A DNA stretch of 17,995 nt from Escherichia coli. GTDB lineage: Bacteria > Pseudomonadota > Gammaproteobacteria > Enterobacterales > Enterobacteriaceae. A program made the translations under genes and the position numbers. The DNA lies in NCBI RefSeq assembly GCF_003334335.1, contig NZ_QOWQ01000057.1; one strand, given 5' to 3'. Position 1 is the first letter of the stretch; each line of letters starts with the position of its first letter. The notes under the pieces are model-generated. The model had not been told where the DNA came from, did no database searches, and worked only from the letters and a program-made list of their open reading frames with translations. Below, one piece after another: positions 15,201-16,025 of this stretch.

Positions 15201-15309
15201 TTTTAAAGAACGGGAAATTGCCAACGCATTACGTGAAGAGACCGCCAGCTATAATATTGATATTGATGAGGTGATAGCGCTTGCCCGTCAGCAGAAGGAA
15301 TATCACTGA
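12214..15309 (+). CDS. hsdR: Type I restriction-modification restriction subunit HsdR (nuclease plus SF2 helicase/translocase), 1031 aa
   Basis: N-terminal PD-(D/E)xK nuclease RPDLVLYVNGIALGVIELKR; Walker A HTQGSGKSLTMVWLA; DEAH-like FVFVDECHRTQSGK. TTG start at 12214 with AAGGAG (12202-12207) 6 nt upstream, 18 nt after darG. Confidence 0.92.
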   Translation: MSTVGQRERATQQRLIQFFVEDLGYRHLSHRTGYTGNSNIDTNILSAWLKRRGVNDTLITRALRQLDSAAALGEGKKLYYANKEVYRLLRYGVKDKEGAGEQNQTVWLIDWANPQANDFAIADEVTVKGEYCKRPDLVLYVNGIALGVIELKRSSVHVSEGIRQNLDNQKKTFIRDFFTTMQLVMAGNDTQGLRYGTIETPEKYYLEWKEDNPGDYTHKLDFHLSRLCSKSRLLDIVHNYIAFDVGVKKLCRHNQFFGVEAAKQHIARREGGIIWHTQGSGKSLTMVWLAKWIRENVPNSRVLIVTDRTELDEQIESVFMGVNEDIYRTSSGNDLIATLNHPNPWLICSLVHKFGRRSEAEDNAATDAFITELQQSLTKTFRAKGDLFVFVDECHRTQSGKLHNAMTAILPDALFIGFTGTPLMKKDKKKSVEVFGPYIHTYKFDEAVADGVVLDLRYEARDIDQYLTSEKKVDDWFEAKTRGLSNLARTQLKQKWGSMQKLLSSKSRLEQIVNDILLDMDTRPRLMDGRGNAMLVCSSIYQACKVYEMFSQTELAGKVAIVTSYRPDAASIKGEETGEGLTEKLSKHATYRKMLADYFEQSEEKAAARITEFEREVKQRFIEEPGQMRLLIVVDKLLTGFDAPSATYLYIDKTMTDHTLFQAICRVNRLDGEDKEYGYIIDYKDLFRSLDKAITDYTTGAFDDYDRDDVAGLLKDRLEQAQLDLDSALEMVRSLCEPVKTPRSLLDYQHYFCGESGENQTSLNEKEALRLTFYQCVARLLRAYASIANEMPEAGYTAEEVESIRAEVAEFEKLRYEIKLTSGDLLDMKRFEPAMRHLLDMYVRADGSEVLMDFEELSLIELIVEKGLAATVALPDDIRNNQDAMAETIENNVRKTIVDENPVNPKYYGRMSQLLDELITLRRQNALNYQQYLERIRDLCKQVIRPEQTAGACYPATMDTQAKRAFYDNFGHDEVLATRIDTTIRYTKRAEWIGDRFKEREIANALREETASYNIDIDEVIALARQQKEYH

Positions 15310-16025
15310 TGCCAATCATGCAAATAGGCTCGTTACACTTGCTGGTCAACCGTAAGGCGATTAAGAATCTGCATATCAGCGTGCTGCCGCCTGATGGCAA
15401 AGTCCGCGTTTCAGCGCCGGAACATATGACGGAGACGGCGATTCGTATGGCGGTTGCTTCACGCTTTCGCTGGATCAGAAAACAGCAGCAGGATTTCGCC
15501 AGACAGCCTCGTCAATCAGAGAGGGAAATGGTCAGCGGAGAGTGCCACTATCTTTGGGGCCGAAGATATCGCCTACTTGTGATTGAGCGTCACGGGCGTC
15601 ACGAAGTAAAAGTTGCAGGAAATAATAAGCTCCAGCTTTATGTTCAACCGGGAACCCGTGATGAAAATAAGGCATTGGCGTTAAGTGAATTTTATCGACA
15701 TGAACTAAAACAGCAGGTGGCTAAGCTTCTACCTGAATGGCAGGACCGAATCGGTGTTCCCCTAACATTCTGGGGCATCAAAAAGATGAAAACCTTTTGG
15801 GGCACCTGTAACACTACAACAAAACGAATCTGGCTCAATCTGGAGCTAATTAAGAAGCCGCCGGAGTGTCTGGAGTATATTCTGGTGCATGAACTGGTTC
15901 ATCTTCTGGAACGTCACCATAATGCTCGCTTCCGGTTGCATATGGATCGGTTTATTCCTGACTGGCGTGAGCGTCGGGATTTGTTAAATAATATGCCGTT
16001 AGCGTTTGAGGCATGGGAGTATTGA
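15309..16025 (+). CDS. DUF45/YgjP-like zinc metallohydrolase (M48-like HExxH), 238 aa, translationally coupled to hsdR
   Basis: N-terminal pattern LLVNRKAIKNLHISVLPPDGKVRVSAPEHMTETAIRMAVASRFRWIRKQQ typical of DUF45; metal-binding HELVHLLERHHN. ATG 15309-15311 overlaps the hsdR stop TGA 15307-15309. Confidence 0.8.
   Translation: MPIMQIGSLHLLVNRKAIKNLHISVLPPDGKVRVSAPEHMTETAIRMAVASRFRWIRKQQQDFARQPRQSEREMVSGECHYLWGRRYRLLVIERHGRHEVKVAGNNKLQLYVQPGTRDENKALALSEFYRHELKQQVAKLLPEWQDRIGVPLTFWGIKKMKTFWGTCNTTTKRIWLNLELIKKPPECLEYILVHELVHLLERHHNARFRLHMDRFIPDWRERRDLLNNMPLAFEAWEY

Follow-up and report, generated by a model that had tools for sequence, protein, structure and literature searches.

A YgjP-like (DUF45) metallopeptidase gene is joined to hsdR in a widespread lineage of type I restriction-modification systems

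A gene for a YgjP-like (DUF45) zinc metallopeptidase adjoins hsdR in type I restriction-modification (R-M) operons of Proteobacteria, Actinobacteria, Bacteroidota, Firmicutes, Cyanobacteria, and archaea, and among them the hsdR-DUF45 junction and the order of the genes are conserved, as is co-diversification with HsdR. On sequence grounds, DUF45 behaves as a fixed fourth component of a widespread type I lineage and not as swapped-in defense cargo. We analyzed the gene in a window of 17,995 nucleotides of Escherichia coli DNA (the whole stretch studied here). At a probability of roughly 35%, we suggest that its product, as a built-in protease, controls HsdR on DNA or clears it, proteolysis being suggested by genomic linkage and fold. 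For this very island, both the gene and the way it recurs with type I systems are already in print, and the gene is therefore not a discovery of ours; what we add to that report is the conservation of the hsdR overlap, the distribution among phyla, a fold for the protein, and the tail motifs, and with them the breadth and rigidity of the hsdR-DUF45 junction across phyla.

The operon in the window has the order rptR-hsdM-hsdS-(darTG cargo)-hsdR-DUF45 (Table 1), and IS3 and IS66 remnants lie past the DUF45 gene. It is a type I R-M operon by its profile matches: PADLOC MTase_I, Specificity_I, and REase_I are the top matches (E = 0 to 3e-131), and TIGR00348 and TIGR00497 match its type I genes. 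The ORF upstream of DUF45 encodes a bona fide HsdR (PADLOC REase_I, 1636 bits; TIGR00348, E = 1e-163) with the Pfam domains HSDR_N, SWI2_SNF2, and T1R_D3-like. The region has a 100% match in E. coli chromosomes such as NCTC86, and the window corresponds to the "RRDM" (RptR-RMS-DarTG-M48) island, a set of seven genes that Zhang et al. (2025, NAR; PMC12255303) described in EPEC E2348/69, citing the accession WP_001122107.1; accession, seven genes, and IS66/IS3 flanks are the same, and the sequence is without difference. In that study the island was cloned whole (pBR322-RRDM) and was phage protective, hsdM was induced upon infection, and the promoter was repressed by RptR via TAGCTA repeats (PMC12255303). 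The "M48" gene was never deleted, mutated, or discussed; it figures only as a recurrent cluster, found with type I R-M in the neighborhood figure, and in tables (PMC12255303). A sequence-only reading of this DNA had stated that such genes have no demonstrated role, and this still holds: the only paper we found that names the gene did not test its role, the searched literature yielded no functional study of it, and the Vibrio cholerae VPI-2 type I paper and other type I papers that we checked do not mention it. A Bacillus cereus "DUF45" fibrinolytic protease paper was set aside as a functional precedent, as it offers a domain annotation only.

Table 1. Features of the RRDM operon and of the hsdR-DUF45 junction (positions are those of the window).
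Feature	Position	Strand	Remarks
RptR operator repeats TAGCTA, TAGCTA, TATCTA	6364..6387	+	Three repeats; sequence read against the TAGCTA repeats of the RRDM paper
rptR	6411..6650	+	79-aa repressor; first gene of the operon
hsdM	6690..9128	+	Long form, 812 aa; profile matches
hsdS	9128..10462	+	Profile match, RefSeq annotation
darT-darG (DarTG2)	10475..12195	+	Cargo between hsdS and hsdR; outside the conserved frame
hsdR	12214..15309	+	1031 aa; TTG start; C-terminal end ...QQKEYH
AAGGA Shine-Dalgarno-like motif	15295..15299	+	Within the final hsdR codons (Q-K-E-Y-H), 9 nt 5′ of the DUF45 ATG
TGATG junction	15307..15311	+	hsdR stop TGA 15307-15309, DUF45 start ATG 15309-15311
DUF45/YgjP-like zinc metallopeptidase gene	15309..16025	+	238 aa; WP_001122107.1 ("M48" of the RRDM island)
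Metal site HELVHLLERHH	15888..15920	+	H194, E195, H198, H204
DUF45 C-terminal tail MPLAFEAWEY	15993..16022	+	Residues 229-238; consensus ...LNxxP[L/V]xHExWxY-COOH

The last ORF of the operon is a genuine gene rather than a chance ORF, because its product matches Pfam PF01863 (YgjP-like, formerly DUF45; COG1451) over nearly the full model (E = 1.6e-61, 208 bits, model positions 5 to 206 of 207); RefSeq labels the same ORF "M48 family metallopeptidase." The sequence-only reading had the gene beginning on the hsdR stop codon, and it does so, with stop and start sharing a single base. Purine-rich K/R-E codons are recurrent among relatives at the position of the AAGGA motif. Ahead of DUF45 we found no convincing internal promoter (one weak site versus 2.4 expected by chance). 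The junction therefore has the sequence hallmarks of translational coupling, a stop codon that overlaps the next start codon, a Shine-Dalgarno motif ahead of that start, and no promoter for DUF45 alone, and we infer that DUF45 is translationally coupled to hsdR and probably made at a set ratio to HsdR. By its arrangement it is co-transcribed with hsdR as the last gene of the type I R-M operon.

We compared this junction across prokaryotes by a pattern scan in which each GTDB species was represented by one genome; it yielded 80 loci from about 80 species with relatives 32 to 66% identical, and the ORFs of these loci were searched with iterated profiles seeded by the window's proteins. The loci span Gammaproteobacteria, Deltaproteobacteria, Cyanobacteria, Actinobacteria, Bacteroidota, Firmicutes, Chloroflexi, Spirochaetes, Synergistetes, and three archaeal lineages. 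An HsdR homologue directly adjoins DUF45 on the same strand in 53 of the 80, and adjacency holds in 31 of the 32 best-ranked loci (L002 to L033, 40 to 66% identity to the query). Among the 53, hsdR lies upstream in 50 and downstream in 2 (both Bacteroidales), and the remaining one is a decayed chimera. By our reckoning a random gene would adjoin hsdR in well under 1% of genomes, and the hsdR-DUF45 association is therefore far beyond chance. According to the sequence-only reading, DUF45 genes recur beside type I genes; these 53 adjacent pairs, together with about 350 Klebsiella plasmids considered below, bear that out and extend the association well past this locus. COG1451 is also said to have been linked to type I systems by Makarova et al. 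in 2011.

The junction itself is narrow. When the start codon nearest the hsdR stop is taken, DUF45 starts −20 to +3 nt from that stop in 48 of 50 junctions (16 at −1, 8 at −14, 8 at −11, and 5 at 0), which agrees with the earlier suggestion that the protein is probably made in step with HsdR. The order M-S-R-DUF45 on one strand is kept in all 27 loci that also have hsdM and hsdS, and between hsdS and hsdR these complete loci carry 0 to 4.3 kb of extra DNA. Independent gene calls with precomputed Pfam matches gave the identical 1-nt overlap in Methylomonas and in three V. cholerae islands, although the hsdS-hsdR cargo differs among them (zeta-toxin-like; SMC-like plus SLFN/AlbA; GmrSD plus AAA_15). 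RptR was found in none of the 80 related loci by iterated profile search, and for DarT and for DarG the count was 1 of the 80 each; on this co-occurrence we rejected a functional tie of DUF45 to RptR or to DarTG. Because of its conserved junction, gene order, and co-diversification with HsdR, we count DUF45 as part of the operon's fixed frame and the hsdS-hsdR cargo as its variable part.

Two kinds of DUF45 can be told apart. In a neighbor-joining tree, the hsdR-linked proteins fall in one large, almost monophyletic clade, and those without hsdR branch separately. E. coli K-12 YgjP and other stand-alone DUF45s share with the linked proteins their Pfam family, the invariant metal site, and a basic character, but they differ from them in their separate branches, in the lack of the W-x-Y tail described below, and in their housekeeping neighbors (phosphoglycerate mutase, trehalose-phosphate synthase, and the MarP protease). 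Since many stand-alone members sit in such housekeeping neighborhoods, the basic activity of the family is not specific to restriction. Across linked loci, the pairwise identities of DUF45 track those of HsdR (r = 0.86) more closely than those of HsdR and HsdM track each other (r = 0.72), and mean pairwise identity is 43% for DUF45 and 51% for both HsdR and HsdM. Co-diversification of DUF45 and HsdR is also what tight physical linkage alone would be expected to produce. The partner proteins share features of their own: linked HsdRs are about 1,010 to 1,075 aa long, typically ∼1,030 aa, of the TIGR00348 type, with no Pfam domain in the C-terminal ∼330 aa, and a long HsdM (at least 744 aa, typically ∼800 aa) occurs in 22 of 25 DUF45-linked systems, that of the window included.

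The "M48" label carried by RefSeq and by the RRDM paper does not suit the protein, which gives no significant match to the M48 (Ste24/HtpX) profile (Pfam, E = 0.1) and is not membrane embedded or anchored. We found no transmembrane segment in it (maximum 19-residue hydropathy, 0.57; GRAVY, −0.55), and by this composition it is soluble. Besides the YgjP-like match, it matches the SprT-like profile over model positions 26 to 94 of 108 only (E = 4.3e-6) and WLM at E = 0.033; an accurate name is "YgjP-like/DUF45, SprT/WLM-like zincin." NCBIfam, PADLOC, and PHROGs hold no model for the protein, and for annotation this means a gene that goes without a PADLOC or NCBIfam model under a misleading "M48" name. 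Nor does it have the M78 domain and the obligatory pairing with an HTH repressor that define the repressor-cleaving M78 peptidases (ImmA/IrrE/CapP). The metal site at residues 194 to 204 is intact, as the sequence-only reading had it, and its residues H194, E195, H198, and H204 do not vary among the 73 homologues compared, 53 of them hsdR-linked and 20 stand-alone. Together with F208 they form HExxH-x5-H-x3-F, the WLM/SprT signature, here within a zincin fold, and the edge-strand residues W164, G165, and C167 (W-G-x-C), typical of peptide-binding zincins, are likewise invariant. The protein is strongly basic (pI 9.96, net charge +14.6), with a pI of 10.9 for its N-terminal half; this basic character bears only indirectly on a putative DNA-dependent proteolysis of DNA-bound proteins.

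An AlphaFold2 model built from a 120-sequence alignment reached a pLDDT of 95.5 (37 for the single-sequence model). It consists of a basic N-terminal domain of about 130 residues, for which there is no solved relative, and a minimal zincin catalytic domain at the C terminus. In this model the zincin domain is closest to the minigluzincins and next to the Wss1/Spartan DNA-protein-crosslink proteases, and a profile search likewise gave homology to projannalysin, proabylysin, and selecase (E = 6e-8 to 2e-5). The minigluzincins (proabylysin, 4JIU; projannalysin, 4JIX; selecase, 4QHF) are single-domain archaeal proteins of ∼105 to 110 aa with no known genomic partner. DUF45 shares their catalytic scaffold of about 100 residues by sequence and fold homology but is a two-domain protein, with the additional 130-residue basic N-terminal domain, a three-His HExxH-x5-H site, and a clade-specific C-terminal tail. 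Compared with Wss1, SPRTN, and SprT-like proteins, it is without the SprT zinc ribbon, a ubiquitin-binding module, or a SHP/PIP module, and its Pfam assignment is YgjP-like rather than SprT-like/WLM.

Both partners have distinctive C-terminal ends. An exact W-x-Y end is found in 21 of 49 hsdR-linked DUF45s and in 0 of 21 stand-alone ones (Fisher P = 1.3e-4, not corrected for phylogeny). The HsdRs of the DUF45-linked lineage end in ...Q-x-[E/D]-Y followed by zero to two residues, with "EY" inside the last four residues in 36 of 50. This EY end is encoded by four synonymous codon pairs, which points to selection on the HsdR protein end as well as on the embedded ribosome-binding purines. The closest solved homologues of DUF45, proabylysin and projannalysin, are zymogens blocked by their own C-terminal tails, and for this reason we consider that the W-x-Y tail may auto-inhibit the active site as a pseudo-substrate. 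The conserved acidic-Tyr end of HsdR (Q-x-E-Y) may in turn be a docking or cleavage site. Tail autoinhibition and docking on the HsdR end may both operate, but they are weaker suggestions than that of a protease acting on HsdR.

Type I enzymes endanger their host and do not turn over after cutting. To our knowledge, the sole safeguard that acts on the type I enzyme itself is degradation of HsdR by ClpXP in EcoKI-type systems. For another such safeguard against self-damage, a protease gene that stays fixed to hsdR in bacteria and archaea alike is an obvious candidate. Under the protease-on-HsdR reading, coupled translation would yield the protease at a set ratio to HsdR; the enzyme would act proteolytically on HsdR or on the DNA-engaged restriction complex, and it would limit or clear HsdR that is stalled on DNA. 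It would then be a built-in counterpart of the ClpXP-dependent restriction alleviation of EcoKI, and it would resemble Wss1 and SPRTN in removing proteins stuck on DNA. We can also draw a fuller picture, one that we put forward with more hesitation and regard as rather doubtful in its entirety, in which DUF45 would be a fourth subunit-like, latent, tail-autoinhibited, DNA-associated metalloprotease that docks on the HsdR Q-x-E-Y end and destroys DNA-stalled HsdR, providing self-encoded alleviation or complex clearing in a pan-prokaryotic type I lineage. If the fourth-subunit reading is true, these systems encode their own alleviation or clearing, including archaeal systems that lack ClpXP.

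The comparison with ClpXP is one of function. ClpXP degrades the HsdR of EcoKI during restriction alleviation, a proteolysis of HsdR engaged on unmodified host DNA by which some type I systems avoid self-damage (PMC12255303, PMC11109961). The job proposed for DUF45 would be the same as in EcoKI and EcoAI but done by a dedicated enzyme, probably as a functional analogue only, whereas ClpXP is a host AAA+ serine protease encoded apart from the restriction system and has no homology to DUF45. ArdC, whose metalloprotease domain is associated with type I antagonism, was considered and rejected as a precedent for a metalloprotease acting on type I systems; its protease activity is dispensable for the phenotype.

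The genomic evidence favors an integral HsdR partner over a swapped-in effector, because the position of DUF45 is constant while the hsdS-hsdR cargo varies and because DUF45 co-diversifies with HsdR. The same linkage could be read as that of a guard-type back-up effector, for which PrrC with EcoprrI and the Lit metalloprotease are the models: HsdR would hold the protease inactive until its release when a phage inhibits or destroys the complex, and the freed protease would then cleave an essential host or phage protein in abortive infection. Membership in an infection-induced defense island fits such a guard, as do an overlap that probably sets expression relative to HsdR, a clade-specific tail that could be an autoinhibitory latch, and the general use of proteases as defense effectors. 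We nevertheless think it unlikely, as the protein matches no PADLOC or PHROG model and has no homology to Lit or PrrC, as embedded effectors (DarTG, GmrSD-like, AAA/SLFN modules) swap between hsdS and hsdR whereas DUF45 stays in place and co-diversifies with HsdR, and as an arms-race effector would not typically keep a mean pairwise identity of 43% from bacteria to archaea. Of similarly low probability is a role in vivo other than proteolysis, either as a metal-dependent hydrolase of small molecules or nucleotides or as a non-catalytic factor in HsdR assembly or maturation. E. coli YgjP reportedly has weak UTP pyrophosphatase activity, and the substrate might accordingly not be a protein; however, the closest relatives in sequence and fold are peptidases, either demonstrated or zymogens, both the WLM-type signature and the W-G-x-C edge strand are invariant, and the invariant catalytic Glu speaks against a purely structural role.

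The protease might instead serve in counter-counter-defense, degrading anti-restriction proteins (Ocr and ArdA-type DNA mimics) bound to the type I complex. Its probable co-expression with HsdR would put it at the complex, and it is very basic where DNA mimics are acidic, but we judge this improbable: anti-restriction proteins are diverse and fast evolving whereas DUF45 is conserved across domains of life, and DUF45 is linked to hsdR whereas DNA mimics generally bind the HsdM/HsdS core. The window offers a further potential substrate in RptR, whose cleavage by a cognate protease upon infection would lift repression of the operon, after the pattern of CapP/CapH, ImmA/ImmR, and IrrE/DdrO. The RRDM authors propose that RptR is removed through proteolysis or sequestration, citing CapP/CapH (PMC12255303), the DUF45 gene co-occurs with rptR in Gammaproteobacteria, and rare homologues in Lachnospiraceae occur as fusions with an IrrE-like M78 peptidase and a Cro/C1 HTH; set against these points, the failure of RptR to co-occur in any of the 80 loci makes such a role very improbable. 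Scarcely credible, finally, is a gene that hitch-hikes and is functionally unconnected with the restriction system. No phenotype is reported and stand-alone family members exist, as they might for a passenger, but such a gene would not be expected to keep a conserved overlap, a fixed order, and an active site that is intact in at least 10 phyla plus archaea. A protease that acts on HsdR remains our preferred reading.

Within E. coli, an intact pair of hsdR 3′ end and DUF45 is present in 248 of 5,426 complete genomes (∼4.6%), and 248 of the 256 genomes with any match retain both parts. An apparent HsdR-DUF45 fusion in one of the sampled loci (L072) proved to be a decayed HsdS/HsdR/DUF45 chimera in a MAG and not a genuine fusion. 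Klebsiella conjugative plasmids carry a 31%-identical DUF45 copy that overlaps an hsdR of a different lineage by 4 nt, in a system whose HsdM has 507 aa; Klebsiella accounts for 347 of the 471 matching plasmid records.

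The HsdR proteins of the lineage linked to DUF45, the YgjP-like zinc metallopeptidase gene that starts on the hsdR stop codon, share a conserved Q-x-E/D-Y C-terminus (window 15286-15306; DUF45-encoding loci L002-L081), and the codons specifying this ending vary synonymously among the DUF45-linked loci. No Pfam domain was found in the last ~330 residues of the window HsdR. For the modification subunit, the hsdM/N6_Mtase models cover the window HsdM only to residue ~445, leaving ~370 C-terminal residues unassigned. Of 25 systems counted, 22 combine DUF45 with an HsdM of this long form (at least 744 aa). 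The window hsdM is intact, whereas that of E. coli strain NCTC86 is frameshifted.

Features of the island, its flanks, and related loci (window coordinates unless a locus is named)
Feature	Position	Strand	Remark
973-aa ORF for an Ag43/Cah autotransporter adhesin; 303-aa YeeP-like GTPase family gene	161-4291	-	
Hypothetical protein, 314 aa, RefSeq WP_032171640.1	4468-5412	-	Between GTPase gene and island
Three tandem 6-bp palindromes, TAGCTA, TAGCTA, TATCTA	6364-6387	+	Directly 5' of rptR
rptR, 79 aa	6411-6650	+	
hsdM, long form, 812 aa	6690-9128	+	
darT (218 aa) and darG (355-359 aa)	10475-12195	+	Between hsdS and hsdR
Unannotated ORF, 142 aa	15914-16342	-	Antisense overlap with last ~110 nt of DUF45 gene
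IS3 transposase fragment, then IS66-family tnpA and tnpB	16370-17390	+	
DUF45 fusion proteins P0178, P0217	L039 9989-11875; L052 1265-3817		
443-aa ORF	L072 1079-2410		Zoogloeaceae MAG
Type I system with DUF45	L082 5645-9681		Klebsiella pneumoniae plasmid NZ_MZ475708.1

The darT-darG pair, matched by PADLOC at E values of 2e-74 (DarT) and 1.5e-127 (DarG), is already known as the DarTG2 cargo of RRDM, a published E. coli defense island. Related islands carry quite different genes at the same hsdS-hsdR site: a zeta-toxin-like gene, an SMC-like gene plus SLFN/AlbA, GmrSD plus AAA_15, or YecA plus a cold-shock domain.

On 347 Klebsiella plasmid records there is a type I system from a different lineage, with an HsdM of 507 aa and an HsdR of 1,094 aa, and there too a DUF45 gene, 31% identical, overlaps hsdR by 4 nt. 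The hsdS and hsdR genes of this system flank a YecA-family gene plus one with a cold-shock domain, and two DUF262 genes follow downstream. The matching plasmids are for the most part conjugative, the tabulated example being IncFIB/IncFII.

The Lachnospiraceae loci L039 and L052 encode the hsdR-coupled DUF45 as a fusion with an IrrE-like M78 peptidase domain, which contains a second HExxH motif. The 854-aa form additionally carries a Cro/C1 helix-turn-helix, thus combining two metalloprotease domains and a DNA-binding domain in a single protein. The 443-aa ORF at L072, an apparent HsdR-DUF45 fusion, joins one half of HsdS to 50 residues of HsdR and to a DUF45 domain missing its first 43 residues; we rejected it as a genuine fusion and regard the locus as decayed.

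At the 5' end of the operon, the palindromes agree with the published RptR operator. For the Methylomonas homolog of RptR, a Pfam family now exists (PF24718, HTH_73).

Beyond the operon, the YeeP-like GTPase gene is intact in the window, whereas in NCTC86 an internal stop makes it a pseudogene. Neither WP_032171640.1 nor the 142-aa ORF has an NCBIfam or PADLOC match. The N-terminal half of the latter, encoded at ~16100-16342, looks protein-like; it may be the remnant of a gene truncated by neighboring IS elements. The IS3 and IS66 sequences, combined with IS elements reported for the opposite flank, place such elements on both sides of the island, which fits its horizontal acquisition.
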